The position numbers and the translations under genes are program-made. Shown one piece after another: positions 259 to 60,458 of a stretch of 64,000 bases of DNA; position 1 is the stretch's first letter; every line of letters starts with the position of its first letter. The notes under the pieces are model-generated. The model made no database searches. It was not told the DNA's origin and saw only the letters and a list, made by a program, of their open reading frames with translations. The stretch lies in the sequence record NC_052655.1; one strand, given 5' to 3'. Source of the stretch: Escherichia phage alia.

Positions 259-1995
259 TTAGTTTACCAGTTTATTTATGTCTGGTAAAAGATTTATTTC
301 ACCTAAGAAATCACCTTCACCTTCCTCTAGCCAACTCTCATATGCTTGTGCATGATTATAGTTACCATCAAAAGAATCTGCAACAAATTTTTCTACAGTT
401 TTTCGAGATGTGCCAGCGCCAAATACACCAAGTTTAATACCATTGATCGGTAAAGTGGTACTTGTGGGTACTTTCTCTGTTGCAACACGGTTGATATCTA
501 TAATCTCCTGTACGGTTGTGTTCCATTGTAAGCATTTAACACAACGGGTATGCGCTACATACAGTAGGTTTCGCTCTGCCTCTTCTAGTCCTACCCATTC
601 ACCAGTCTTTTTATCATAGTTGGAAGGAAAATCATTAGCAACAATAACCTGATCCCACTCCAAACCTTTAGACTTATGTGCTGTAGTCAGTGTGACTTTT
701 GCTGTAGGAGAATTTCTATGCGTTCTAAGTGTATGTGCTATAGTGTTTGCCTTACCAGAAACTACGATGTTTAACAAGCGTTTAGCATCTGGATCAGCCT
801 CTGCACACTCAACAAATTCATTCCAGTCTGCGTAAGGTAATACAGTTTCATGTTTTACTTTCTCAATATCTCCTCTCCGAAGAGCATTAACACTATCTAC
901 CATAGAGATAAAATCCCTGGTATCTACGTTAATAATAATTTCTTCCCCATCTGCAATACGATCCATTGCCTCCATAAGCAAGGTTAAATTCTTGCGAAAG
1001 ATGATAGTGTAAGGTTTTGTATAGTCTACAACATCTGATTTGTAGCTACCTACTACAGTATCAAAGCCTTTACCAACCAAAGGGTGACGCAAAGGTTCTT
1101 TATCGCTTAAAATCATATTGGCAATGTTTGCCACTTTGGGGCCAAAACGGAAGCAAGCAGTTAATGGAAGCTCTGCCCCATATGTAGATGTTTCCTTCAT
1201 CATATTTTGGCTTCCACGGAACTGGTAGATGCTCTGATATTCGTCACCCACCACTACTACTTGTTTTGCAGATTTAGCATTTCGCAGAATAGACAAAAAT
1301 GCAGGGTTAACATCCTGGAATTCATCACCAAAAATAATATCATAACCAAGATCAGCACCAGACAATTCAAATAATTTTACATAGGTGTCATGCGTCATCA
1401 AAGTATCTGTGTTAGGATCGATGCGCTCTCGCCACAATTGTTTTGCATACTTAACTACTTCTGTAATTAGTTTGTGTTCGTTAATACCTTTTCTTTTAAT
1501 ATCTGCAAGATGTACACTAGGAAAATGTTTACGGCTGATAAAAGGATCATCCGAAAATTCAAACTTACCTACGGTTTGTTTGATCATTAAACCAATCATA
1601 GCACGAGTTAAAAGTGTTTTCCCTCGTTTATCAATAAGATTATTAATCTTAAATTTCTTTGCTATCTCACTACCTGTACCTGCAACGTTAACATACTGTC
1701 CTTCTGGTCGTGATAGTTTTGCACGTAAACGATGATCCAGGAATTGATAGCAAATAGAATGCAATGTACGGCATTCTACATTTAGTGGCATCTTACGTCG
1801 TGCTTCTTCTGCCATGCTTTTATTGAAAGCTAAGTAAAGAATGCGATCTTCTGTACTGTTAGCCAGCAAATAAAGTGTTGACGTTTTGCCTGATCCAGAT
1901 TTAGCTTGGATAGTTAAAAAGCGATGGTCTGGAAAAGCCTCCTTAATAGCTGTTTGCTCTTCTGTTGGAGTGAAGCTCAACTCTTTCTTAGCCAT
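259..1995 (-). CDS. UvrD/Rep-like superfamily 1 DNA helicase
   Basis: Track ORF trimmed to Met14 (GAGAGG RBS); Walker A GSGKT, motif II DEFQD, motif III GDEYQSIYQFRGS. Confidence 0.75.
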   Translation of the reverse strand: MAKKELSFTPTEEQTAIKEAFPDHRFLTIQAKSGSGKTSTLYLLANSTEDRILYLAFNKSMAEEARRKMPLNVECRTLHSICYQFLDHRLRAKLSRPEGQYVNVAGTGSEIAKKFKINNLIDKRGKTLLTRAMIGLMIKQTVGKFEFSDDPFISRKHFPSVHLADIKRKGINEHKLITEVVKYAKQLWRERIDPNTDTLMTHDTYVKLFELSGADLGYDIIFGDEFQDVNPAFLSILRNAKSAKQVVVVGDEYQSIYQFRGSQNMMKETSTYGAELPLTACFRFGPKVANIANMILSDKEPLRHPLVGKGFDTVVGSYKSDVVDYTKPYTIIFRKNLTLLMEAMDRIADGEEIIINVDTRDFISMVDSVNALRRGDIEKVKHETVLPYADWNEFVECAEADPDAKRLLNIVVSGKANTIAHTLRTHRNSPTAKVTLTTAHKSKGLEWDQVIVANDFPSNYDKKTGEWVGLEEAERNLLYVAHTRCVKCLQWNTTVQEIIDINRVATEKVPTSTTLPINGIKLGVFGAGTSRKTVEKFVADSFDGNYNHAQAYESWLEEGEGDFLGEINLLPDINKLVN

Positions 1996-1996
1996 T

Positions 1997-2473
1997 TCAA
2001 CCTCTCTTAATTTGTTTAACAAGCATAGGAACAAAATCTCGTTTTAAAATTTGTTCAATAATATGATCAGGTAGCTGTTGGAAATTATAATTAAAAGCTA
2101 CTGTCTCACCTTTAGGTGTTTCTACCCGCACATATAACATGTTACGAAGTTTATCCACTTGTGCTGTGTATTCTAAACCATGTAATTGATGCATTGCAAA
2201 CATCAAATCATCAGTTTCAGTTTGGAATCTATCCCTTCCCTGCATCAAGGACAAGGAAAAAGGTAGATTTTCTCTAAGAGCCACCTTCTTAGGCACTAGT
2301 GAAGGGAAATATTCCCCAATAACTGCCTGTGTAAGCTGAATACACTCTTTTTCAAGCTGGTTTTGTTCCTTGAGTTCACAAACACTCTTTTGTAAAGTGT
2401 TAACCTCTTTTTGCAAAGCTGCTAGTTGAGCACTTAACTTTCTTTTTTGATTACGACCAAAACGTTTAGACAT
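1997..2473 (-). CDS. hypothetical protein, basic N-terminus and coiled-coil-like region
   Basis: Track ORF 158 aa; co-directional tight packing with neighbours. Confidence 0.5.
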   Translation of the reverse strand: MSKRFGRNQKRKLSAQLAALQKEVNTLQKSVCELKEQNQLEKECIQLTQAVIGEYFPSLVPKKVALRENLPFSLSLMQGRDRFQTETDDLMFAMHQLHGLEYTAQVDKLRNMLYVRVETPKGETVAFNYNFQQLPDHIIEQILKRDFVPMLVKQIKRG

Positions 2474-39462: not shown

Positions 39463-40452
39463 TCATTCCTCCATACACTTAAGAATATGTGCAATGACAG
39501 GTATAGTCCAACCATTACCTAACATCTTATATGCTTGTGTGTTACTACTCACTTTAAAGTAATCATCAGGAACACCTTGCAAGCGGCAACACTCTTTAAC
39601 CGTTAACTTTCTATAATGTACACCTTCACTCAATTTTTCAAAGGCATCCAGATATCTTCCAGGTGGAATGTAAGCTAATAGTACGTCTTTCGGCACAGTC
39701 GTGAGGCAACGAGTTTTTTCACTGTCCTGAACTTCCAAGCAATGTACCAAACGATCAGTTTTAGATGTACTACGTTTGCCATTTTCATTAATTCTACGCC
39801 CATATATTGCTGCTGGATAAAAAACCAGTTGTCTGCGACTCTTTTCAAAATATTGTTCTATATTACCACCTTTGGCATAATTTGCATCTATGCAATAAGC
39901 CTTATCCCTGTCTACAATACTATCATCTTCAATGATATCTTGCAACACTTCATTGGTAATATCCCAAGGTTTTATTTCCCAATTGCACCAGTATAAACGT
40001 TGTCTATTCTGTGCAGTGAAATCTGCGGAGTTAATGAATACGGGATCAACACCTAAGTAACTTGTGATCACGTTTTCCCACTCCACCTTCATCTTAACGT
40101 TTTCAAGCATGAACTTAACATTAGGGTTAAACTTTTTAATATGTTCAAGAATTTCAACATATTCAAAGAACAGTTTAGATCGCGGATCTTGAAAGTTCAA
40201 ACCCTTACCAGAAGAAGAGAAGCCTTGGCACGGGCTACCACCTAACAAAAGATCAATTTCTCCCCACGGGATATCCCATTCTCTCCATTTTGTAACATCA
40301 CCTAATTGAATAATATCTGGAAAATTGGCTTGGCTTTCAGCTATGGCAAATTTATCCAATTCTGAGGCATAATACTTATCTACTTCAATACCTGCACTTT
40401 TTAGTGCAAGCATTCCTCCTGACATACCATCAAAAAGACTTAAAACTTTCAT
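39463..40452 (-). CDS. DNA (cytosine-5)-methyltransferase
   Basis: Motif I LFDGMSGG, motif IV GGSPCQGFS, ENV motif. Confidence 0.8.
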   Translation of the reverse strand: MKVLSLFDGMSGGMLALKSAGIEVDKYYASELDKFAIAESQANFPDIIQLGDVTKWREWDIPWGEIDLLLGGSPCQGFSSSGKGLNFQDPRSKLFFEYVEILEHIKKFNPNVKFMLENVKMKVEWENVITSYLGVDPVFINSADFTAQNRQRLYWCNWEIKPWDITNEVLQDIIEDDSIVDRDKAYCIDANYAKGGNIEQYFEKSRRQLVFYPAAIYGRRINENGKRSTSKTDRLVHCLEVQDSEKTRCLTTVPKDVLLAYIPPGRYLDAFEKLSEGVHYRKLTVKECCRLQGVPDDYFKVSSNTQAYKMLGNGWTIPVIAHILKCMEE

Positions 40453-49259: not shown

Positions 49260-49526
49260 TTACTCCGCAATCTGAGCCATGAATTCACGTAGTTCAGAAA
49301 AACCTCCTACGTGGGTTAGCTGTTCACCATCTTCCACAAAAATCTGAGGGAATGTGCGTGGTAGAACACCTGTTTTCTCTAAAACCAGATTCTGAAGCTG
49401 ATCTAAAGAATAGTCTTCATCTAAGGTAAGATATTTAAAATCCTGTTCACGCTGTTCCAGTAGAATCTTAGCGTTAGTGCAGAAAGGACAATTTGGTTTA
49501 CCGTAGATAATAAAATTCATTTTCAC
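49260..49526 (-). CDS. glutaredoxin-like protein
   Basis: CPFC active-site motif near N-terminus; 88 aa. Confidence 0.7.
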   Translation of the reverse strand: MKMNFIIYGKPNCPFCTNAKILLEQREQDFKYLTLDEDYSLDQLQNLVLEKTGVLPRTFPQIFVEDGEQLTHVGGFSELREFMAQIAE

Positions 49527-50353
49527 TCCTTGTTTAAAAGTATAGTTAAAGTTCTTACAATACCGCTATCAACACTTCGCGGATTTAAAGTAGGATCTGT
49601 TTTTAAATAAGATGTTGCTGGTCTGACTGCTTTAGAATTATAGGTTGAAGCAGATACAGGATTAACTGTAACAGATAAATCTATAACAAGAAATATCTTA
49701 CGTGCAAAATCATACCAAGAAATATAATCTGCACCTGCATAGTGTACAATTTTACTATTTACACCATCTTTTACAAGTTTAAAAATTGTTTCTGCCAGAT
49801 CAGGTGCATAAGTAGGACATGATAAATGATCACATACTACATTAAATTCTTTTTGACCACCGTTGTAGCGTTCCAACATAGTTTTCAAAAAGTTATGTCC
49901 AAATTCACTATAAACAGAAGCTGTTCTGATAATAAGTGCTGTAGGACAAACTGTTTGTACTAAAGTTTCACCTAATTGTTTACTGTAACCGTAGGTGTTC
50001 AAGGGGTTTGTTTCACTATCTTCTGTGCCAGCAACATGCCCATCAAAAACATAGTCTGTTGAAATATGTACAAACTGTATCAGTAAATCATTACATGCTT
50101 TGGCAATGTTTGTTGCACCGTATGCATTAACATTTATACAGGTGTTAACATCTTCTTCAGCTTTATCTACTGCTGTGTAAGCCGCACAATTCACAACAAC
50201 ATCAGGCACATGCTGTACAAGACTATTCATAACATCTTTAAAGTTGGTAATGTCTACATCACTTGCTTCAATCAAAATAACATCTTCGGGCGCAACTTTT
50301 GCCAAAGACTGTCCTAATTGACCTTTTGAACCAAAGATTAAAAATTTTGTCAA
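49523..50353 (-). CDS. rmlD: dTDP-4-dehydrorhamnose reductase-like (RmlD-like) NAD(P)-dependent reductase
   Basis: N-terminal Rossmann FGSKGQLGQSL; position after rmlC; ATGA coupling. Confidence 0.6.
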   Translation of the reverse strand: MTKFLIFGSKGQLGQSLAKVAPEDVILIEASDVDITNFKDVMNSLVQHVPDVVVNCAAYTAVDKAEEDVNTCINVNAYGATNIAKACNDLLIQFVHISTDYVFDGHVAGTEDSETNPLNTYGYSKQLGETLVQTVCPTALIIRTASVYSEFGHNFLKTMLERYNGGQKEFNVVCDHLSCPTYAPDLAETIFKLVKDGVNSKIVHYAGADYISWYDFARKIFLVIDLSVTVNPVSASTYNSKAVRPATSYLKTDPTLNPRSVDSGIVRTLTILLNKE

Positions 50354-50904
50354 AATATGATCTCCTTTAGTGTTTTGGCTTGCTGATCTTTTTGTGACAA
50401 GATAGGTTTAAAATTAATATCATTAAAGATTAAATCAAAACCCCAATCTATATTGATATCTGGATCATTCCACGCAAGACTACACTCTGAAGTCGGATCG
50501 TAATATTCTGTACATTTATATTCAAAATCAGCAATGTCGCTAATCACAACAAAGCCATGAGCGAAACCAGGAGGAATCCAAAATTGTGTTTTATTCTTTT
50601 CAGATAAGAGAACACCTACCCATTCTCCAAATGTTGGACTACCAACCCTAATATCTACAGCAACATCATAAACTTCACCACGAACACAACGTACTAACTT
50701 CCCTTGTGGGTTTTTCTTTTGAAAATGAAGCCCACGTAGAACTCCTCGAATAGAACGTGAATGGTTATCTTGGACAAAGTTTTGTTTACCTATGTATTGA
50801 TCATATAAAGCCTGATTAAAACTTTCTAAGAAAAAACCACGTTCATCTCCGTAAACGTCAGGTTGAATGATCAACAAATCTTCGATTTTTGTTGCTTGAA
50901 TCAT
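50350..50904 (-). CDS. rmlC: dTDP-4-dehydrorhamnose 3,5-epimerase
   Basis: Cupin-type RmlC pattern (YGDERGFF, RGLHFQ, FAHGF); 184 aa. Confidence 0.75.
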   Translation of the reverse strand: MIQATKIEDLLIIQPDVYGDERGFFLESFNQALYDQYIGKQNFVQDNHSRSIRGVLRGLHFQKKNPQGKLVRCVRGEVYDVAVDIRVGSPTFGEWVGVLLSEKNKTQFWIPPGFAHGFVVISDIADFEYKCTEYYDPTSECSLAWNDPDINIDWGFDLIFNDINFKPILSQKDQQAKTLKEIIF

Positions 50905-50915
50905 TTAATTCCCCC

Positions 50916-51785
50916 TTATTTTAATTTAAGTAAATACTTACCGTAGTCTGTTTTACTTAAAACCTCTCCAGAACTTTTTACAGAGTCTAAAGTAATCCAT
51001 TCATTTTTAAAAGCAATCTCTTCTAGGCATGCAACCTTCATACCTTGTTGCTTTTCTATTGCATGAACAAATTGAGATGCTTCCATAAGACTTTCATGTG
51101 TTCCTGTATCCAGCCAAGTGAAACCTCTTCCTAGTTTACAGACACGTAAAGCCTTTTCTTTCCAGTACATCTCATTTATATCTGTAATCTCTAACTCCCC
51201 TCTAGCAGAAGGTTTAACGCTCTTAGCTTTCTGTATAACAGAATTATCGTAAAAGTACAAGCCTGTAATTGCATAGTTGCTTTTTGGTGCTTTTGGTTTT
51301 TCCTCAATACTCACCACTGTACCTTCAGAATCAAACTCAACAACACCAAATCTTTCAGGATCATTTACGTGATACCCAAAAATATTAGCTCCACCATTCT
51401 TTTCAATATGTTCTTTAGCAGAATCTAAAATGCTACCAAAACTCTGACCAAAGAATAAATTATCACCTAGCACAAGTGCTACAGAATCTTCACCAATAAA
51501 GTTCTCACCAATAATAAAGGCTTCTGCTAAACCTTTTGGACTGTTCTGTACTGCATACTGTAGGGAAACACCAAAAGAAGAACCATCACCTAAAAGATTT
51601 ACAAAATTAATTTGATCTTCTGGTGTTGTAATTATTAGTATTTCCCTAATTCCAGAAAGCATTAGGACAGAGAGTGGATAATAAATCATAGGCTTATCGT
51701 AAATTGGTAATAGTTGTTTACTAACCCCTTTAGTAACTGGGTAAAGTCTTGTTCCGCTACCACCTGCTAAGATAATACCTTTCAT
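50916..51785 (-). CDS. rmlA: glucose-1-phosphate thymidylyltransferase
   Basis: N-terminal [18 protein letters not shown] signature; 289 aa. Confidence 0.85.
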
Positions 51786-51793
51786 ACTCCTCC

Positions 51794-52783
51794 TTAAACT
51801 TTATTTTCCCACCACTCTTTGTTATCTACATACCAATCAATGGTTGAATAAAGTTTTTCTTCAAATGTGCCTTTAGCTTTCCACCCTAATTCCTTTTCGA
51901 TCTTATAAGGATTCACTTCATATCTCAGATCATGCCCAGGTCTATCTGTAACCATCTCAATTAGGCTACAAGCATCTGTTTCAGATGGATACACCGCATC
52001 CATATAATCACAAATCATATAGATTACATCAATATTAGTTCTAGGGTTTCTGCTCCCAATATTATATGTTTCTCCAGATTTGCCTTTAGTTACTACTAGG
52101 TGTAATGCTTCTGCGTGATCGTCAACGTATAACCAGTCTCTTACTTGAAGACCATTGCCATAAACAGGGATTGGTTTATTCATCAAGATATTTGTTATCG
52201 TTTTAGGTATTAGTTTTTCTGGATGATGATATGCTCCAAAATTATTTGAACAATTTGTTAGAACTGTCGGAATACCATAAGTACGATGCCACGCTCTTAC
52301 CAAATGATCGCTTGCTGCCTTAGATGCAGCATATGGACTACTTGGCTTATAAGGATTCTGTTCTGTAAACGGATAATCCCCCTCTTCCATATCACCATAT
52401 ACTTCATCTGTTGAAATATGATGGAACATTTTAAGATTTGATTTATCTCCCATTAAACGAACAGCTTCTAGGAGATTAAATGTCCCAACAATATTTGAAT
52501 TTATAAAAACACTCGGTGATGCTATTGAATTATCTACGTGACTTTCTGCTGCAAGATGCATTATATAATCTGGATTAACATCTGCCACAATCTTAGCAGT
52601 TAACTGCGCATTTGTCAAGTCAACACGACAAAACTTTACATTGGGTGTTTCTGATAAATTTCTAGGGTCTGAAGCGTAACCCCATTTATCTATAACGTAA
52701 ATATCATTTTTAGTATTTTTAGCCAGGAAACGAACTACCGCACTTCCAATAAAGCCTAAACCACCTGTTACTAAGTATTTCAT
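51794..52783 (-). CDS. rmlB: dTDP-glucose 4,6-dehydratase
   Basis: N-terminal [13 protein letters not shown] Rossmann motif, YAASKAASD catalytic YxxxK; 329 aa. Confidence 0.85.
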
Positions 52784-52977
52784 TTAGTCTCCTTCCAATT
52801 ATTCCCTTCAGTAAAAATAATACCTTCATAAAACAACCATCTGGAACCTTTTTCAACAGGAACAGGAATCTCTTCTTCAGTAAAGTTATAAACCTCTCTA
52901 GCATCTTCTAAAAGTGATGCAAATGTTTTTGGACTTACTGTTACGCGAGGAGCATTGATCAGTTGATCTAGCATCAT
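52780..52977 (-). CDS. hypothetical small protein
   Basis: Track ORF trimmed to Met32 with AAGGAGG RBS. Confidence 0.45.
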   Translation of the reverse strand: MMLDQLINAPRVTVSPKTFASLLEDAREVYNFTEEEIPVPVEKGSRWLFYEGIIFTEGNNWKETK

Positions 52978-53638: not shown

Positions 53639-53849
53639 CTTTTTCTCCTTTGATAATTTCAAACTTGGCTACACCATTAACTATAATATGACCGCAAGAC
53701 ATAACTCCTAGCCAATGATCACCATTCTTTTTTAAACGTTTGCCGTAAACATCACAGAAACCATTCTGTAATTCGGAAGCCTCATAAGAGGCTCCCTTTT
53801 CGAAAACGTCTTTGAAGTCAGAAATTAATCCAACACAAAGTAGTTTCAT
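53631..53849 (-). CDS. hypothetical small protein
   Basis: Track ORF 72 aa; start abuts nrdB stop. Confidence 0.45.
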   Translation of the reverse strand: MKLLCVGLISDFKDVFEKGASYEASELQNGFCDVYGKRLKKNGDHWLGVMSCGHIIVNGVAKFEIIKGEKDD

Positions 53850-54934
53850 TAGAAGTCTAACTCCTCGTCATCACTTACATCTTTATTTGCTGAATTCAGT
53901 TTGTAAGCTGTAATTTGGATCTCTTGTGCTGCTGCTTGAATTTGGTCTGGATTTAACCAAACATCCATCCAAGGCAGTGGACTTTTCTTCGGTGCACGGA
54001 ATTTGTGTTTCATTTTCAGTCTGCGATAGATAGGCGCAGCATTGAAGTAAACCCAAAGTTTGAACAACTCTGCGTTACCACCAACGATAATCCTTCCTTC
54101 ACTAAACAGATAGTCACACCAATCTTCCTCTTGTCCAACTACCGTGTCAAGAATTTCTGTCAGAACGTCGATATTATCTTCGTATACTTTTCTCCAGACA
54201 GGATCTTTCAGCAGTGCATCAATAATAGCATAATCCATTTTAACGTGCAATAGTTCATCCAACATAATTTTTTGAATGAGTTTAGCTGCACCTACAAACA
54301 GTTGCTGCTCTGCTAAGGCAAATGTTGCAGCAAAAGATGATATGAATTGAATGCCTTCCAGACCGATAAGTGCAATCATTCCTTTCAGAATCAGTAGACG
54401 AAGGTTATCATCCTTCTCAATCAGACCTAGAGCATATTTATGTCCTGCCTCTGCCAGATCACTCATTATCTCTTCAACTATACCCATCCTCTGGAAGATT
54501 CTTTCGTTCTCCATAATCTGATCGATAACTTCATTTGGATTAGGGATACACTGACGAATAATTTCAGAATATGTCAAAGCGTGTAAAACTTCCATTTCTG
54601 ATTGCTTCATCATCATTGCACATGCTTCGTTGTTGCTTAAAAATGGTGCAAACAAAGTGATGATTGATTTAGCAAGTGAATCATTTTCCCATTGGAAGGA
54701 TAGGTTTTTGATCATAACATCATAGTTGCTTTTAGAACAAGCTACGAAATCTTTTCGTGTCTGATCTAAGTTTACTTCGTTTTCATCCCAATCTTGCTGT
54801 TTTTGTAGTTTGTACAGACGATGCATTTCTGGGTATGTTACATTAATAGAATCAAAAATACCTAACTGTTCTCCCAAAAATACAGGATAGAAACCTTCTT
54901 TGTAAGTGTCGTTGTATAAATTAATCGCTGCCAT
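53849..54934 (-). CDS. nrdB: ribonucleotide reductase small (beta) subunit, class I
   Basis: 361 aa ferritin-like protein downstream of nrdA; di-iron ligand-type E/H spacing. Confidence 0.8.
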   Translation of the reverse strand: MAAINLYNDTYKEGFYPVFLGEQLGIFDSINVTYPEMHRLYKLQKQQDWDENEVNLDQTRKDFVACSKSNYDVMIKNLSFQWENDSLAKSIITLFAPFLSNNEACAMMMKQSEMEVLHALTYSEIIRQCIPNPNEVIDQIMENERIFQRMGIVEEIMSDLAEAGHKYALGLIEKDDNLRLLILKGMIALIGLEGIQFISSFAATFALAEQQLFVGAAKLIQKIMLDELLHVKMDYAIIDALLKDPVWRKVYEDNIDVLTEILDTVVGQEEDWCDYLFSEGRIIVGGNAELFKLWVYFNAAPIYRRLKMKHKFRAPKKSPLPWMDVWLNPDQIQAAAQEIQITAYKLNSANKDVSDDEELDF

Positions 54935-55256
54935 TTAAATCCTCCACAATATCACACATTGCTTTTATTGTATCAATGTGTTTTCTCTCCATACCATTCT
55001 CTATGTAAGCCTTCTCTAATGCGTTCCATACACTCTTTGTGAGTAGTACAGTAACCTCTCCATCATATCTTGCCCTGGTTAAAGCATACCAGGTAGCTTC
55101 TGGATCATTGGAAGCCCATATTTCAACACTGGAAAATTGAAAACCTGCAATATGATGACAACACCAATCGAATGTAAAATCTTTACTATCTACCAGTGTA
55201 TAATTGCCCCAACGCCTTTGTGGTGTTGCCCCAGGTAATACAACTAATGTAGGCAT
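54921..55256 (-). CDS. hypothetical protein between nrdA and nrdB
   Basis: Track ORF trimmed to Met15 with AAGGAGG RBS. Confidence 0.5.
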   Translation of the reverse strand: MPTLVVLPGATPQRRWGNYTLVDSKDFTFDWCCHHIAGFQFSSVEIWASNDPEATWYALTRARYDGEVTVLLTKSVWNALEKAYIENGMERKHIDTIKAMCDIVEDLNGSD

Positions 55257-55267
55257 ATTCCTCCTTA

Positions 55268-55290
55268 AGAAATGGGGGACAAAGCCCCCT
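55268..55290 (-). terminator. rho-independent terminator or attenuator (leftward)
   Basis: GGGGGCTTTGTCCCCC then ATTTCTT on minus strand. Confidence 0.45.
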
Positions 55291-55297
55291 AGCTTCA

Positions 55298-57559
55298 TTA
55301 CATCTTACAAGCCTCACAACCGGATTCTTCATCCTCTTGAGCGAGTGAGGTTGCTGATTTTGTTCGACTATTTAGATAGTACAAAGATTTACCACCAAGT
55401 TTTGCAAACTGAAGGATATATTGCATTTCTGATTTAATGGATAAACGACCACCTTCCATCTTAGAATAGTCAATCCACTTGTCACATGATGCACCTTGAT
55501 CTAAGAATTTAGTCAACAGTCCATATGCTTCAGCCATATCTTTATCTGGCGTATCCCAAGCCGATTGGTAAATATCTTTTAGTTTATCGTAATCTGGCAC
55601 AATAAACAAGACATTACCTTTTTGGCTTTGTTTATAAACTATAGTATCACGTACAGGATACACAGAGTTAGTCGTATTACTTACAAGACTACTGGACTCA
55701 TTCGGAGCAATAGCTGCTAATACACTATTTCGGATACCACCTTGTGCAATTATATCTTGTCGTAAACCTTCCCAATCCATTTTAAGTTTAAAATTGCCAA
55801 TATCGTCTACAGCTTTAGCGTAGGTATCAATAGGCAACCATCCTTCAGGCCATTTGGTTTTATGCATCCATTCTGCATTACCTTTCTCTTTTGCCAAACG
55901 AAGAGAAGCTCTTGCTAACCAGTAATAATGTCTTTCTGCTAATTCGTGAATTAGTTTTTTGCCGTAAGGATCTGAATAAGTAACAAAATTACTTGCCAGA
56001 TAATGTGCCAGGTTTGTAATACCTACACCGATAGACCTACGTGCTTTAGCAGTGATTTCGTTATGTTTGAACGGATACTGCATTGTTTCAATAACATTAT
56101 CAATAGTTAGAACGGTATAATATGCAACATCTTCATATTCTTCTGGTGTAACACGACCAGCTACAATAGAAGACAGGAAGCATAATGCCAATTCTTGATC
56201 TTCTGTATTCTCACCTGTGAAAAGATCAGTCATACTGTGAAATGCTTTCGTAGGTAAGAAAATTTCTTGGCACAAGTTTGACTGATAAATAACATCCTTA
56301 AACGGAGTATGCTTATTAGCATTATCCGCAAAGAACATATAAATACGTCCTGTCTCTGCTCTTTGTGTAATAATTTCTGCCAGAAGATCTCGTGCTTTTA
56401 CAAACTTCTTCTTAATTCGTTTGCGACTAACTTTTTCATATACTTCTTCAAACTCTTCCTCGCTTTTATAAAGCGCCTCATAGAGTTCTGGTGCTTCGTC
56501 ATAACTGACTAGCATCCAATCTTTGCCTTTTGCTGCACGGCGCAGGAAAGCATTGTTTACTACAATAGAGTAATCAAGTTTATCTACTCGTTTTTCACTA
56601 ACAGTAGTTGGGTTTTTCAAACGTACCAGATCTTCAAAATCAGGTTCTAATATTGTAAACGTTACTGTTGCACTTCCACCACGACTTGCTTGTTTTGATG
56701 CTCCAACACTTGTTTCCATCCATTTCAGATATGGTAAAAGACCACCGTGAACGATACGGTTGTTCTTAACACCTTGTCCTGTAGCACGGGTTTGTAGGTT
56801 AACACCAATACCTGCATTATTCAAGGTATATTCATGAGCAAGATAGTTAGCAATTGCTAAAGATTCTGCTGTATCATCTGCTCTAAACAGACAACAAGAA
56901 GCACTACCTTTAATCTTAGTACGCAAAGTTGTTAAATAAGGTGATGGTAAATTAATCTTAAGATCACTTACGTAGGTATATAGACGTTTAATGTCTTCTA
57001 CTCTGCGATCTTTTGGTTGGATTTCCATTACCTTCATTGCTACACCAATGAATAAAAACTGTGGTGATTCAAAAACCACATCATTGATCGCATCTTTCAC
57101 AAGATACTTATCAACCATCTGACGCAGTACGGAATAACCATAAGTTAGGTTTTTATCATGATTGATAATTTTACCAATCTCAATAATTTCTTCTTCTGTA
57201 TAATCCATTTTCCCCCAATAGCCTTTACTTACAGACATATTGTAGAAATCCAGGAGGGAGGGGATATTGTGATATCCCCCATGAGCCTGTTTATAGATCA
57301 TACCAAGAAGTAACCGACCTGCCATATCACTATATGCCTGATCTTTCTTATCAATACATGCTGCTATCATAGCTTTATGTAAATCACGAGTAGGCACACC
57401 GTCGTAACAACGTTTAACAGCTTCGAGTTCTATTTCAGACCAATTTAATTTACCAGCAGCAAACTCTGACCATTTACGAAGTTTTTCTGGATTAAATTCT
57501 TCTTTCTTGCCGTTTGTTTTTGTTACATAACGGATAGATTTGCTTAGATACTGAGTCAC
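55298..57559 (-). CDS. nrdA: ribonucleotide reductase large (alpha) subunit, class Ia
   Basis: 753 aa; N-terminal ATP-cone-like region, catalytic-core Cys/Asn/Glu pattern, C-terminal Cys pair (CEAC). Confidence 0.85.
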   Translation of the reverse strand: MTQYLSKSIRYVTKTNGKKEEFNPEKLRKWSEFAAGKLNWSEIELEAVKRCYDGVPTRDLHKAMIAACIDKKDQAYSDMAGRLLLGMIYKQAHGGYHNIPSLLDFYNMSVSKGYWGKMDYTEEEIIEIGKIINHDKNLTYGYSVLRQMVDKYLVKDAINDVVFESPQFLFIGVAMKVMEIQPKDRRVEDIKRLYTYVSDLKINLPSPYLTTLRTKIKGSASCCLFRADDTAESLAIANYLAHEYTLNNAGIGVNLQTRATGQGVKNNRIVHGGLLPYLKWMETSVGASKQASRGGSATVTFTILEPDFEDLVRLKNPTTVSEKRVDKLDYSIVVNNAFLRRAAKGKDWMLVSYDEAPELYEALYKSEEEFEEVYEKVSRKRIKKKFVKARDLLAEIITQRAETGRIYMFFADNANKHTPFKDVIYQSNLCQEIFLPTKAFHSMTDLFTGENTEDQELALCFLSSIVAGRVTPEEYEDVAYYTVLTIDNVIETMQYPFKHNEITAKARRSIGVGITNLAHYLASNFVTYSDPYGKKLIHELAERHYYWLARASLRLAKEKGNAEWMHKTKWPEGWLPIDTYAKAVDDIGNFKLKMDWEGLRQDIIAQGGIRNSVLAAIAPNESSSLVSNTTNSVYPVRDTIVYKQSQKGNVLFIVPDYDKLKDIYQSAWDTPDKDMAEAYGLLTKFLDQGASCDKWIDYSKMEGGRLSIKSEMQYILQFAKLGGKSLYYLNSRTKSATSLAQEDEESGCEACKM

Positions 57560-58339: not shown

Positions 58340-59311
58340 TTACCATTTTGTATGGTTAGTCAAAAGTTGACGATGTTGAATCCAACCACAGAAGTTTCCA
58401 CTCCACAAACGATGTTTACGATCCATATGTGTAATACCTTCTTCCCAAGAAGTAGGGAACGGAGGAATATTAATACCACCTTTCTGTTGTTTTAATCCTG
58501 ACAAATCCATTTCTTTCATTGGCGTTGCCTGGTGTTCAAACGGAGATGCATGTACCTTTTGTCCAGACAGCAAACGAGAATAGATATCCAATGCTTTATC
58601 TTTAGTATCATTCAATTTACGATAACTTACCTGAGCGCAACAAGAAGCTGAAATAGCTTTTGCTTCCTCTTCTGTCAACATTTTCTCGTTGGAGAAGGTT
58701 TCACCTAAGAAATAACGGATCATACCAGTTTCTGGATCTCGATCACGATTAACGTAAGGTGTATGCCATTCCCCTGGGAAAAGAAGATATGGTTCAGAAG
58801 ATTCATACAGTTTTTTAATTTCTTTAGCAAGAGCCTCAATAGTAGGATCTGCATCAGCATCTACGCGCAACCACAAGAAGTTTTCTAGCTCTGTAGCGGT
58901 GACTACAGTCTTCATACGCTGGAATGGTTCTAGTAGGCGGTTTGCAACCTGTTTATGATAACCAGCAAGGGCAAACTCTTCTGCAAAACGTGCAGCACTT
59001 AGTGCAGCCAAGTCCCACCATTCTTTTGCAGTGTAACCTGCATCAATCAGGGCATCGTGATCTGTGCCTTTATCTTGCATACCTGGTTGGTTAGCACCAA
59101 AACGATAAGGACGTGCTGGAGATTGCCGTACCATTTCAATTAGAGTTTTAACAGGGATAGCTCGACTTGATGCAGCATTACGAGAAAACAAACGATGCGT
59201 CATCAATTCAGAGTGAATGATTCGGGGATATTCAAGTTCAAAGGTAACAATATCCTTACCTTCAGATGTTTGAGAGTGTGCAATAATTTTTGCTGAAATA
59301 GAGTTTGTCAT
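58340..59311 (-). CDS. thyX: flavin-dependent thymidylate synthase (ThyX-like)
   Basis: ThyX-type motif region FELEYPRIIHSELMTHRLFSRNAASSRA; longer than typical ThyX. Confidence 0.6.
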   Translation of the reverse strand: MTNSISAKIIAHSQTSEGKDIVTFELEYPRIIHSELMTHRLFSRNAASSRAIPVKTLIEMVRQSPARPYRFGANQPGMQDKGTDHDALIDAGYTAKEWWDLAALSAARFAEEFALAGYHKQVANRLLEPFQRMKTVVTATELENFLWLRVDADADPTIEALAKEIKKLYESSEPYLLFPGEWHTPYVNRDRDPETGMIRYFLGETFSNEKMLTEEEAKAISASCCAQVSYRKLNDTKDKALDIYSRLLSGQKVHASPFEHQATPMKEMDLSGLKQQKGGINIPPFPTSWEEGITHMDRKHRLWSGNFCGWIQHRQLLTNHTKW

Positions 59312-59320
59312 TATTTCTCC

Positions 59321-59911
59321 TTAAGGTAGTAAAATACTTTCAATTTCTTCCCACTGATTATCTAAACCAGTGATAATTACATTAGGAAGTTTCTTTAACT
59401 CTTCCAAGTATGGATCTTCGTAAATAGTGTTGAAATATATTTTCAACGTTTCATCTGGAAATAGGACAAGATTTTCAGCCCTATCGTCAATAGTTACGTC
59501 GCAAGGTAATAAGTATTTTTCTTTTGTTGCGAAAAAGCCATTACCAGATGTTCTACTAAAGTCCACTTTATCTAAAGATCGTGTTACGTGTCTATATTTA
59601 GAACTAAGGTGTCCACCCTTAGTGTGGCTTGCTATAGATATATTAGCTCCATTTGCAATTATACGATGAACAACATCTGTACTATTAGGTACTACTCCCA
59701 TAGTATCATATAGATGTTGGTTATCCCAAAAAGAGTAAGGATCTACACCAAATTGCTTTTTAAAATCAGGAAAATATTTCGTAATATCATAATGCACAGT
59801 CTTTTGTGCCTTATCAAACTTGATATTAGATCTACTTACCGCATTTAACCAACTCAACCATTCTATATCGGCAGGAGCTATTACTAAATCCCAATCACAT
59901 ACTAGACGCAT
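59321..59911 (-). CDS. putative HAD-like 5-prime deoxyribonucleotidase
   Basis: Track ORF trimmed to Met39 with AGGAGAAATA RBS; CDWDLVIAPAD resembles DxD motif; tentative. Confidence 0.4.
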   Translation of the reverse strand: MRLVCDWDLVIAPADIEWLSWLNAVSRSNIKFDKAQKTVHYDITKYFPDFKKQFGVDPYSFWDNQHLYDTMGVVPNSTDVVHRIIANGANISIASHTKGGHLSSKYRHVTRSLDKVDFSRTSGNGFFATKEKYLLPCDVTIDDRAENLVLFPDETLKIYFNTIYEDPYLEELKKLPNVIITGLDNQWEEIESILLP

Positions 59912-60458
59912 TATTTCTCCTGTTATAACATTTTCTACACATTGTTTCGTAAATGTCTTCTCCTCCAATAACAATCTGTTCTTTAGAGTCGATAAGTCTA
60001 GCATTGAAAATAGCTTTTCTTCCACATTTACAAATGCTTTTCAATTCTGTAATTGAATCTGCTATGGCTAATAACCGTTCAGAACCTTCAAACAATTCTG
60101 TAGCAAAATCTGTTTTAAGCCCATAACAGAATACAGGAATATCGTAATTATCTACCACATCTCCAAGAATGTCAACCATATCTTTAGTTAGGAATTGTGA
60201 TTCGTCCACAAATACTGCATCTACTGGATTTTCTTTAAGCTGTGTATAAATTTCCAGCATATCTTCTTTTGTTTTAACTGGTTTTGCTTCCTCTTTAATA
60301 CCTATCCTAGAAGCAATAGCACAACCAGATCTGGTATCTAAAGCTGAAGTTAAAAGAAGAACTTTCATATTTCTTTCTTTATAGTTCCAAGCTGTTTGTA
60401 GCAGATGTGTGCTTTTACCACTGTTCATCGGACTATATCGGAAATAAAGTTTAGCCAT
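59895..60458 (-). CDS. tdk: thymidine kinase
   Basis: P-loop SPMNSGKST, VFVDESQF, C-terminal zinc-binding Cys pairs. Confidence 0.85.
   Translation of the reverse strand: MAKLYFRYSPMNSGKSTHLLQTAWNYKERNMKVLLLTSALDTRSGCAIASRIGIKEEAKPVKTKEDMLEIYTQLKENPVDAVFVDESQFLTKDMVDILGDVVDNYDIPVFCYGLKTDFATELFEGSERLLAIADSITELKSICKCGRKAIFNARLIDSKEQIVIGGEDIYETMCRKCYNRRNNASSM

Follow-up and report, generated by a model that had tools for sequence, protein, structure and literature searches.

A four-gene dTDP-sugar cluster inserted in the ribonucleotide reductase operon of a phi92/phAPEC8-like Escherichia phage, and its possible role in supplying a rhamnose donor for a target other than DNA

It was found that the window, the whole 64,000-nucleotide stretch of Escherichia phage alia DNA analysed here (NC_052655.1), carries a complete rmlB-rmlA-rmlC-rmlD cluster inserted between the nrdB and glutaredoxin genes. 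The source phage is phi92/phAPEC8-like and belongs to the Stephanstirmvirinae. Our leading explanation, tentative and held at less than even confidence, is that the cluster gives the phage a host-independent supply of a rhamnose donor, from which phage glycosyltransferases would build a glycoconjugate other than DNA, at a guess on virion proteins. The features of the region are as follows.

49260–49520, minus strand: glutaredoxin (PF00462), 86 aa, with a Shine-Dalgarno site and the ATG start at 49520 visible
49523–50353, minus strand: rmlD, dTDP-4-dehydrorhamnose reductase, 276 aa, TTG start (TIGR01214, 254 bits; cut-off 224)
50350–50904, minus strand: rmlC, dTDP-4-dehydrorhamnose 3,5-epimerase, 184 aa (TIGR01221, 260 bits; cut-off 156)
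50916–51785, minus strand: rmlA, glucose-1-phosphate thymidylyltransferase, 289 aa (TIGR01207, 473 bits; cut-off 361)
51794–52783, minus strand: rmlB, 329 aa (TIGR01181, 441 bits; cut-off 365)
52780–52977, minus strand: small ORF, 65 aa (phrog_27883), predicted to be translationally coupled to rmlB; 198 bp in the annotation of phage PaulScherrer
52991–53317, minus strand: conserved ORF upstream of rml, 108 aa (phrog_15453), a PHROG match with function unassigned
53849–54934, minus strand: nrdB (Pfam Ribonuc_red_sm)
between nrdB and nrdA, within 53849–57559, minus strand: 125-aa ORF
55298–57559, minus strand: nrdA (Pfam Ribonuc_red_lgC)
58340–59311, minus strand: ThyX-type thymidylate synthase (PF02511, phrog_85)
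between ThyX and thymidine kinase, within 58340–60458, minus strand: NT5C-like ORF
59895–60458, minus strand: thymidine kinase (PF00265)

A preliminary description had proposed four consecutive rml genes at 49523–52783, in the order rmlB-rmlA-rmlC-rmlD and flanked by glutaredoxin, NrdA/NrdB, ThyX and thymidine kinase. All of this was borne out: four minus-strand ORFs lie exactly there, and the flanking genes gave Pfam or PHROG matches at the coordinates listed. Enzymes were assigned by the curated NCBIfam equivalog cut-offs, which all four Rml proteins exceeded; the Pfam matches were concordant and the motifs intact. Because the E-values of the profile matches ranged from 1e-72 to 1e-142, the matches are not due to chance. 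For RmlB the best solved structure was 1g1a (a dTDP-D-glucose 4,6-dehydratase, 393 bits), and in the alignment GGxGFIG, the T-D-E triad and YxxxK (as PYAASK) were kept. RmlA matched 1iim best (419 bits), with GGSGTRL, LGDN, EKP and WLDTGT kept, and RmlC matched 1dzr (219 bits), with the equivalents of His63, Lys73 and Tyr133 kept. In RmlD, whose best structures were 1vl0 and 3sc6 (154 bits), GxxGxxG, STDYVF and YGYSK (YxxxK) were kept. These residues are presumably catalytic, as in the Salmonella and Pseudomonas structures. An S-Q-K-D motif was also observed close to the C-terminus of RmlC.

The cluster resembles bacterial RmlABCD (E. coli, Salmonella rfb/rml; rffG/rffH) in its four enzyme families, catalytic residues, and expected substrates and product. 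It differs in gene order (B-A-C-D here, B-D-A-C in K-12), in sequence (35–66% identity to the K-12 proteins) and in lying within a phage ribonucleotide reductase operon without an adjacent glycosyltransferase, wzx or wzy. RmlB showed 53% identity to RffG of K-12 and RmlA 64–66% to RfbA and RffH; for RmlD the value was only 35%, to RfbD. The homologues of RmlD include talose-forming reductases (6-deoxy-L-talose synthases), so that the stereochemistry of the 4-reduction, and with it the final sugar, is uncertain. As judged from sequence, the product should be dTDP-L-rhamnose or a closely related dTDP-6-deoxy-L-hexose.

The rml genes are tightly packed, with Shine-Dalgarno sites present. The ATG of rmlB overlaps the stop codon of the upstream ORF (ATGA), and the TTG start of rmlD overlaps that of rmlC (TTGA). 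Promoters and terminators in and around the cluster showed no excess over shuffled sequence in the region scanned, and the genes are probably co-expressed with those of nucleotide metabolism. Comparison with PaulScherrer, which covers 97.5% of the window, gave 39 synonymous and 10 non-synonymous differences (dN/dS ∼0.07), indicating purifying selection. The base composition of the rml genes is phage-like (GC 34–36%, GC3 19–23%). When 185,579 species genomes were scanned with a pattern-seeded search, the top bacterial relatives of RmlD were 35–44% identical and scattered over phyla. A bacterial donor of the rml genes was thus sought and dropped, as no source for RmlD closer than 44% identity was obtained. 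Base composition, the divergent RmlD and a locus shared with the deep-branching Klebsiella phage 05F01, which has the same BACD order, suggest that the cluster is old and phage-adapted.

The origin of the arrangement became clear from the sister phage rV5. Its module reads ThyX-NrdA-NrdB-glutaredoxin, with NrdB and glutaredoxin adjacent, and no Rml homologue was detected in the whole rV5 genome, while NrdA, NrdB, ThyX, Grx and the major capsid protein were detected at 41–53% identity (51–53% for NrdB and NrdA, 52% between ThyX and the FAD-dependent thymidylate synthase of rV5). Since glutaredoxin directly follows NrdB in rV5 and rml is missing there, the cluster represents an insertion between nrdB and the glutaredoxin gene. 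Functionally, glutaredoxin goes with nrdAB, from which the rml genes now separate it. Co-location with dTTP synthesis genes, earlier taken as an argument for a nucleotide-linked role, is therefore weak functional evidence: rV5 has the same module without rml, and the inference is unsupported. The dTTP-gene neighbourhood was accordingly dropped as a signal of function.

The cluster is annotated in more than 100 genomes of Stephanstirmvirinae-type phages. Together with its flanks it showed 98–99% nucleotide identity in relatives, with 130 phage records matching and 52 of them covering at least 80% of the query; phage W22 is 99.2% identical to the window over the cluster region. The pathway and its odd location are already in print (Olsen 2020, PMC7552041; Maffei 2021, PMC8594841; Mathieu 2020, PMC6969025), the cluster having been described in phi92, phAPEC8, PaulScherrer and other Stephanstirmvirinae, and the window itself shows no difference. 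What is new here is the insertion point relative to rV5, recurrent variants with rmlC and rmlD only, host gene frequencies and a cluster of partner glycosyltransferases. No functional study of the Stephanstirmvirinae rml genes was found in the literature.

rmlC was present in every Stephanstirmvirinae lineage examined. By tblastn, RmlC was found in 104 Escherichia-phage records and RmlA in 86; for Klebsiella-phage records the counts were 8 and at most ∼2. rmlC is kept with rmlA absent in ∼18 E. coli-phage and at least 6 Klebsiella-phage records. The two such loci inspected, in ESCO37 and FKP3, carry rmlC-rmlD without rmlA and rmlB. In both, a 327-bp ORF lies directly upstream of rmlC, and between the two there is no ORF of the size of that at 52780–52977. 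The latter, in whose longer version the phrog_27883 match covers residues 32–96, therefore apparently belongs to an rmlB-rmlA cassette. On the host side, 98% of complete E. coli genomes carry rffG-rffH (5309 of 5426) and 44% carry rfbD (rmlD; 2386 of 5426). The retention of rmlC and rmlD without rmlA, together with the lower frequency of rmlD than of rffG-rffH in hosts, implies that the phage-specific need is for the final sugar. Lineages that lack rmlA and rmlB fit the ability of the host to make dTDP-4-keto-6-deoxyglucose.

These patterns bear on a purely metabolic role, in which the cluster would buffer or sequester thymidine nucleotides or glucose-1-phosphate, or would consist of near-neutral auxiliary genes without a dedicated acceptor. 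The genes do sit among those for dNTP synthesis, they have been listed in print simply as auxiliary metabolic genes, and some natural relatives do without rmlA and rmlB. Nevertheless, we consider such a role most improbable, given that a whole pathway to a dedicated glycosyl donor is kept subfamily-wide at dN/dS ∼0.07, that the late, product-defining steps encoded by rmlC and rmlD are always the ones retained, that RmlA alone would suffice as a sink or buffer, and that glycosyltransferases co-occur. Sequestration of dTDP-sugar pools, one of the uses suggested previously, is likewise unlikely because the complete four-step pathway is under purifying selection.

The preliminary description had recognised no glycosyltransferase nearby. 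This holds for the window, as the curated PaulScherrer annotation of the corresponding range contains none, and when 60 hypothetical proteins encoded in the non-structural regions of PaulScherrer were scanned with Pfam, none emerged there either. It does not hold genome-wide: in every close relative, including W22, glycosyltransferase genes lie beside the primase/helicase gene, ∼18–21 kb beyond the left edge of the window. In PaulScherrer, where they are ∼72 kb from rml, there are four glycosyltransferase-like genes (GT1 to GT4): two encode GT-B paralogues, one a GT-A with a DxD motif, and one a small DxD protein; GT1 is 98.4% identical in W22. Their distribution parallels that of RmlC, with counts of 104–105 in Escherichia and 9–10 in Klebsiella phages, the Klebsiella-phage lineages having a reduced set. 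No homologue of the four was found in the whole rV5 genome. In a distant relative whose primase/helicase is 47% identical, a 4,6-dehydratase-like SDR lies inside the homologous glycosyltransferase cluster, which ties sugar-nucleotide enzymes to these glycosyltransferases. We infer the link with rml from clade-wide co-occurrence, which counts as one evolutionary event.

AlphaFold models showed a GT-B fold of the GT4-like type for GT1 (pLDDT 94.9) and a GT-A fold for GT3 (pLDDT 88.6), which has an invariant FxFDDD motif. The protein designated GT4 (187 aa) gave no significant PDB or Pfam profile match; there was at most a weak resemblance to GT2, and its DxD motif is invariant. Fold searches with GT1 and GT3 were rejected as a route to the acceptor: the neighbours were generic GT-A and GT4-type GT-B enzymes, and glycosyltransferases acting on DNA, lipids, small molecules and proteins all occurred among them.

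Glycosylation of the phage DNA was the leading idea of the preliminary description, and DNA rhamnosylation had been proposed for this cluster, termed peculiar, by Olsen 2020 (PMC7552041). On this reading, phage glycosyltransferases would use dTDP-rhamnose to modify phage DNA, possibly at sites that are rare or sequence-specific, and the modification would serve as a counter-defence; the model would be glucosyl-hydroxymethylcytosine of T4 or arabinosyl-5-hydroxycytosine of RB69, DLP3 and HY126. The phage has its own Dcm-like methyltransferase, an example of what might set such sites. As in the phages with sugar-hypermodified DNA (T4, RB69/DLP3/HY126, and RL38JI with hexosyl-5hoC), a phage NDP-sugar supply and glycosyltransferases occur among DNA-metabolism genes; the nucleotide-sugar supply that such systems require is present as rmlBACD. 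Structural relatives of the GT1 model include the T4 DNA alpha-glucosyltransferase, the T4 beta-glucosyltransferase and the HY126 glycosyltransferase. The donor, in contrast, is a dTDP-sugar here and a UDP-sugar in the DNA-hypermodification phages. Unlike in the T4/RB69/DLP3 type, neither a hydroxylase or hydroxymethylase of the ThyA family nor a TET/JBP enzyme was found. The only thymidylate synthase detected is ThyX-type, and neither a ThyA homologue nor a TET/JBP or 2OG oxygenase was seen among 60 hypothetical proteins of PaulScherrer or in its annotation. Furthermore, RB69 and DLP3 DNA is highly restriction-resistant, whereas that of Stephanstirmvirinae is restriction-sensitive, phages of the group being exceptionally so despite the rml cluster (Maffei 2021, PMC8594841). 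Because the phages are restriction-sensitive and no enzyme making a hydroxylated acceptor base was found, DNA glycosylation is disfavoured and was regarded as improbable. A form invisible to restriction assays, through rare or sequence-specific sites or a chemistry without a ThyA- or TET-type acceptor enzyme, has a slightly smaller chance still. Neither reports of rhamnosylated phage DNA nor LC-MS nucleoside data for these phages were found in the literature.

The Sphingomonas jumbo phage PAU has an independent rmlB-rmlC-rmlA (40–58% identity), likewise near a gene of the thymidylate synthase family. It differs in that the nearby gene encodes a short and divergent member of the ThyA family that might modify pyrimidines, and RmlD was not recognised there. 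PAU, unlike the present phage, may therefore be a true case of DNA modification.

Remodelling of the host envelope was also considered. Here the phage glycosyltransferases and the rhamnose donor would change a glycan of the cell surface, for instance the LPS core or the common antigen, which could mask the receptor and so exclude superinfection or keep progeny from sticking to debris; in phages with rmlC and rmlD only, dTDP-4-keto-6-deoxyglucose, from which the common antigen is made, could be drained as well. The ancestral rmlA and rmlB would, however, enlarge that pool, not drain it. Moreover, the phage is virulent and its infection cycle short, whereas seroconversion is known from temperate phages; in the 147 kb of the PaulScherrer annotation covered here, neither an integrase nor a repressor is listed. 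The PaulScherrer annotation and Pfam scans revealed no flippase, ligase or membrane GT-C, and no Gtr-type genes (GtrA/GtrB, serotype-specific membrane glycosyltransferase); no such phenotype is reported in the literature. Taken together, an envelope target seems unlikely.

We therefore return to the supply of a rhamnose donor for a non-DNA glycoconjugate. An ancestor of Stephanstirmvirinae would have gained rml by insertion between nrdB and the glutaredoxin gene. The four enzymes would turn glucose-1-phosphate and dTTP into dTDP-L-rhamnose or a close dTDP-6-deoxy-L-hexose, so that the donor would be assured whatever the host: almost every E. coli strain should reach dTDP-4-keto-6-deoxyglucose via rffH and rffG of the common antigen, but fewer than half should be able to complete the pathway. 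The donor would be used by the glycosyltransferases encoded beside the primase/helicase gene, outside the window, and the product would be a rhamnose-containing glycoconjugate, not bulk DNA. For the acceptor our committed guess is virion proteins made by the phage. In chloroviruses (GDP-6-deoxyhexose of PBCV-1) and mimiviruses (UDP-L-rhamnose), virus-encoded 6-deoxyhexose pathways supply virion glycans; unlike in those giant viruses, dTDP is the nucleotide carrier here, and virion glycosylation is a prediction.

The location of soluble glycosyltransferases away from the structural genes is shared with cluster F mycobacteriophages of the Che8 type, whose relatives have glycosylated capsids. Outside the group, phage homologues of GT3 were found only in ∼60 Mycobacterium-phage records (25–27% identity, E-values of 1e-6 to 1e-8). 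In the two loci inspected, Pacc40 and MooMoo, the homologue occupies the slot before the terminal HNH gene, where Che8 has gp108–110, and GT3 corresponds to its N-terminal domain. GT3 itself showed no BLAST similarity to gp108–110. A direct link to the Che8 virion glycosyltransferases was thus rejected, as only the alternative same-slot glycosyltransferase of other cluster F phages matches. A sequence scan of the structural proteins for Ser/Thr-rich tails, possible O-glycosylation sites, showed nothing conspicuous.

Phages of the phi92 and phAPEC8 type infect a very wide range of hosts and serve as candidates for therapy; in the BASEL collection they had the broadest host range (Maffei 2021, PMC8594841). 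The present results indicate that a sugar-nucleotide pathway and several glycosyltransferases are held under selection in these phages. The end product, made by rmlC and rmlD, is what matters, and host genotype predicts when the phage genes should be needed. With the partner glycosyltransferase genes now identified, deletion experiments are easier to design around host genotype and rmlC/rmlD. If DNA were the target, this would be a new base modification and the first rhamnosylated DNA; if the envelope, a virulent phage would be masking receptors in a new way. If virion proteins are the target, immune recognition and stability in phage therapy would be affected, and this would be, to our knowledge, the first glycosylated virion among coliphages.

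The four consecutive genes that the preliminary description placed at 49523-52783 were found as minus-strand ORFs with exactly matching coordinates, each of which passed its NCBIfam equivalog threshold with Pfam in agreement:

51794-52783, minus strand, rmlB, 329 aa
50916-51785, minus strand, rmlA, 289 aa
50350-50904, minus strand, rmlC, 184 aa
49523-50353, minus strand, rmlD, 276 aa, TTG start

Alignment to solved structures indicated that the nucleotide-binding and catalytic motifs were intact in all four proteins. The conserved motifs were GGxGFIG, the T-D-E triad and YxxxK in RmlB, GGSGTRL, LGDN, EKP and WLDTGT in RmlA, and GxxGxxG, STDYVF and YxxxK in RmlD; in RmlC the His, Lys and Tyr equivalents were conserved. 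A Shine-Dalgarno sequence was present before each gene, and the genes were separated from one another and from the upstream ORF by 8-11 nt or joined by ATGA/TTGA overlaps. The rmlD stop was followed after 2 nt by the glutaredoxin ATG at 49520, which had a Shine-Dalgarno site and gave an 86-aa protein, as annotated in relatives; a mechanical ORF list gave a GTG start at 49526, overlapping rmlD (window 49518-49526). Promoter-like and terminator-like sites in the rml region were not more frequent than in shuffled sequence. Between these genes and those of the close relative PaulScherrer, 39 synonymous and 10 non-synonymous changes were counted (dN/dS ∼0.07). The flanking genes described earlier (glutaredoxin, NrdB, NrdA, ThyX and thymidine kinase) were also confirmed. 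The rml feature is genuine and was correctly identified, and its final sugar could be 6-deoxy-L-talose instead of L-rhamnose.

The nearest relative of the window was Escherichia phage W22, with 99.2% identity over the rml region; phi92-like phages of Justusliebigvirus, a genus of Stephanstirmvirinae, were 98-99% identical over it. Among the latter is PaulScherrer, a BASEL phage, which covered 97.5% of the window. A nucleotide search matched the region to 130 phage records, in most of which the four genes were annotated. Olsen et al. 2020 (PMC7552041) described the cluster as peculiar and proposed rhamnosylation of hydroxymethylated nucleotides, Mathieu et al. 2020 (PMC6969025) counted RmlA and RmlB among auxiliary metabolic genes, and a 2024 paper restated 'rhamnose modification' as a supposition. 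Maffei et al. 2021 (PMC8594841) noted that these phages were exceptionally susceptible to restriction-modification despite a 'putative dTDP glycosylation machinery'. Neither an experimental study of rml function in these phages nor a report of rhamnosylated phage DNA was found in the literature search. In view of these accounts and annotations the observation is real but already known in this phage group, and the interpretation offered at first coincides with the published speculation.

Five records named as Campylobacter phages (MG065639, MG065645, MG065656, MG065689 and MG065650; host C. jejuni) also matched the rml region, four of them, as listed in the nucleotide search, with 98.5% identity over 4.4 kb. 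They carried the same glycosyltransferases as well, and seem to be E. coli phages, either wrongly labelled or present as contaminants. At 259-2034 (minus strand) the window has a UvrD/Rep-family helicase ORF of 591 aa. In PaulScherrer the helicase is annotated as a 2775-bp precursor that includes an intein of 1041 bp, and this intein appears to be missing from the window's phage.

Compared with E. coli K-12, RmlB was 53% identical to RffG, RmlA 64-66% to RfbA/RffH, RmlC 57% and RmlD 35%. The gene order was B-A-C-D in the phage versus B-D-A-C in K-12. The GC content of the genes (34-36%, GC3 19-23%) was similar to the overall 37% of the window. When 185,579 species genomes of bacteria and archaea were scanned with pattern seeding, the best RmlD relatives found had only 35-44% identity and were scattered over many phyla. 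Judged from the sequences, the rml genes were not captured recently from the host.

The position of the cluster could be traced by comparison with other phages. The homologous module of rV5, a phage belonging to the sister subfamily Vequintavirinae, runs ThyX, two small ORFs, NrdA, NrdB, glutaredoxin and NrdD, with glutaredoxin directly after NrdB. Whole-genome tblastn of rV5 gave matches for NrdA (53%), NrdB (51%), ThyX (52%), glutaredoxin (41%) and the major capsid protein (43%), and none for the Rml proteins. The deep-branching Klebsiella phage 05F01, whose RmlC was 50% identical, has the order ThyX-NrdA-NrdB-small ORFs-rmlB-A-C-D-glutaredoxin. These gene orders indicate that rmlBACD and a few accompanying small ORFs were inserted long ago between nrdB and the glutaredoxin that partners it, and that the insertion was already in place in the ancestor of Stephanstirmvirinae. 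The preliminary description had taken the co-location with dTTP synthesis genes as an argument for a nucleotide-linked role. Given the insertion site, the co-location is mainly a historical accident and is weak evidence for a role linked to DNA, so that this preferred reading is weakened. The rml genes are probably co-expressed with the neighbouring dTTP genes, and RmlA consumes dTTP.

The steps retained in natural variants were informative. Phapecoctavirus ESCO37 lacks rmlA and rmlB, keeping rmlC and rmlD adjoining glutaredoxin; the locus of Klebsiella phage FKP3 consists of nrdB, two small ORFs, rmlC, rmlD and glutaredoxin; and in phage Eryne rmlA is truncated. In the phage collection 104 Escherichia-phage and 8 Klebsiella-phage records had RmlC, and 86 and at most ∼2, respectively, had RmlA. 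The variants and counts indicate that early pathway steps were lost repeatedly while rmlC was kept, and with it rmlD at both loci inspected. Such loss can be explained by the hosts supplying the early steps. The K-12 enterobacterial common antigen locus carries rffG and rffH, and the pair was present in 5309 of 5426 complete E. coli genomes; an rfbD (rmlD) homologue was detectable in 2386 of the 5426. Nearly every host should therefore have dTDP-4-keto-6-deoxyglucose within reach, and more than half would be unable to take it on to dTDP-L-rhamnose. In host range these phages are the broadest of the BASEL collection (Maffei 2021, PMC8594841), and with a pathway of its own a phage would have the final sugar available whatever the O-antigen type of its host. 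The retained late steps and the host gene frequencies argue that what matters is the end product, not a nucleotide sink; a purely metabolic role is considered scarcely credible.

It had been stated that no glycosyltransferase was recognisable nearby. This held for the window, where none was found, but the relative PaulScherrer has four glycosyltransferase-like genes (GT1-GT4, bas60_0048-0051). They directly follow the primase/helicase and DNA polymerase genes, ∼18-21 kb past the left edge of the window and ∼72 kb from rml. GT1, 98.4% identical in W22, and GT2 are paralogues (41% identity) with PHROG annotation as glycosyltransferases, and the predicted structure of GT1 (pLDDT 94.9) was a GT4-type GT-B. 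GT3, a GT-A whose model reached pLDDT 88.6, carried an invariant FxFDDD motif. In the small orphan protein GT4 a DxD motif was invariant, and its GT2-like signals were faint. GT1-GT4 were distributed like RmlC, each occurring in 104-105 Escherichia-phage and 9-10 Klebsiella-phage records, which represents one co-gain and not many independent gains. From glycosyltransferase evidence drawn from relatives, we infer that the rml genes supply GT1-GT4. A distant relative, a metagenomic phage contig (Logan SRR10036067, L094 3834-9944) with a 47% identical primase/helicase, has the order GT4-like, 4,6-dehydratase-like SDR, GT3-like, GT2-like, small ORF and primase/helicase. The dehydratase-like gene amid the homologues gives independent support for the link. 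The adjacency of glycosyltransferases and primase is conserved far beyond Stephanstirmvirinae, and the cluster can itself contain the sugar-nucleotide enzyme. In another lineage a reduced set of one GT-B and a 189-aa ORF of GT4-like size occupied the corresponding position.

GT1-GT4 were also absent from rV5 by whole-genome tblastn. This phage has its own 'putative alpha-1,3-fucosyltransferase' (gp010, L100 5703-6602), unrelated to GT1-4, so glycosyltransferases annotated with a 6-deoxyhexose donor may be a wider theme among these large myophages. Beside the cluster in relatives, outside the window, lie tellurite-resistance-like TerD, vWA-TerF-like and TelA genes and a SleB-type cell-wall hydrolase (L003 4505-9575, PaulScherrer record ∼51.5-56.6 kb; also L097-L099, further stretches compared), followed by a macrodomain protein, a phosphoribosyltransferase and a HAD protein. 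The set resembles bacterial Ter-associated systems; a TerC-family protein is encoded elsewhere in the genome, apart from TerD/TelA.

As for the acceptor, known sugar hypermodification of DNA combines a ThyA-family hydroxymethylase/hydroxylase (or TET/JBP) making the acceptor, a phage-encoded NDP-sugar pathway and DNA glycosyltransferases, and the resulting DNA is highly restriction-resistant. In contrast, the sole thymidylate synthase here is ThyX-type, and these phages are restriction-sensitive (Maffei 2021, PMC8594841). When 60 hypothetical proteins encoded in the non-structural regions of PaulScherrer were scanned against Pfam, 11 families were found, none of them a ThyA homologue, TET/JBP, a 2OG oxygenase or an additional glycosyltransferase. 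The DNA glycosylation suggested initially is therefore disfavoured, and DNA as the rhamnose acceptor is regarded as very unlikely, with a small probability left for rare or sequence-specific modification. A Dcm-like C5-cytosine DNA methyltransferase was observed at 39463-40452 (minus strand; PF00145, E 3e-43), for which no TET/JBP partner was found in the PaulScherrer annotation and Pfam scans. PaulScherrer adds Dam-like and other N6-adenine methyltransferases.

The unrelated jumbo Sphingomonas phage PAU (NC_019521, L092, record 135221-140302) has an rmlB-rmlC-rmlA cluster two genes downstream of a divergent short ThyA-family protein (235 aa). No RmlD was recognised at this locus, and the surrounding large ORFs gave no Pfam hit. 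Because divergent ThyA homologues were recently found to make hydroxylated pyrimidines for glycosylation, PAU may possess a real dTDP-sugar DNA hypermodification cluster.

Phage homologues of GT3 outside the subfamily were found only in ∼60 Mycobacterium-phage records. At the loci inspected in two of them, Pacc40 and MooMoo, GT3 matched a glycosyltransferase N-terminal domain, and the gene occupied the genomic slot held in Che8, a phage with glycans on its capsid proteins, by glycosyltransferases gp108-110. GT3 itself, however, had no BLAST match to gp108-110. 6-Deoxyhexose pathways encoded by viruses, as in chloroviruses and mimiviruses, have virion glycosylation as their established use. On these grounds, phage-made, probably virion, proteins were tentatively chosen as the most likely target of the whole chain, in which the rhamnose donor would serve their glycosylation. 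Remodelling of the host envelope was ranked second to protein glycosylation and is rather unlikely. The function of the rml genes is a reasonable experimental target, for which the analysis yields concrete predictions.
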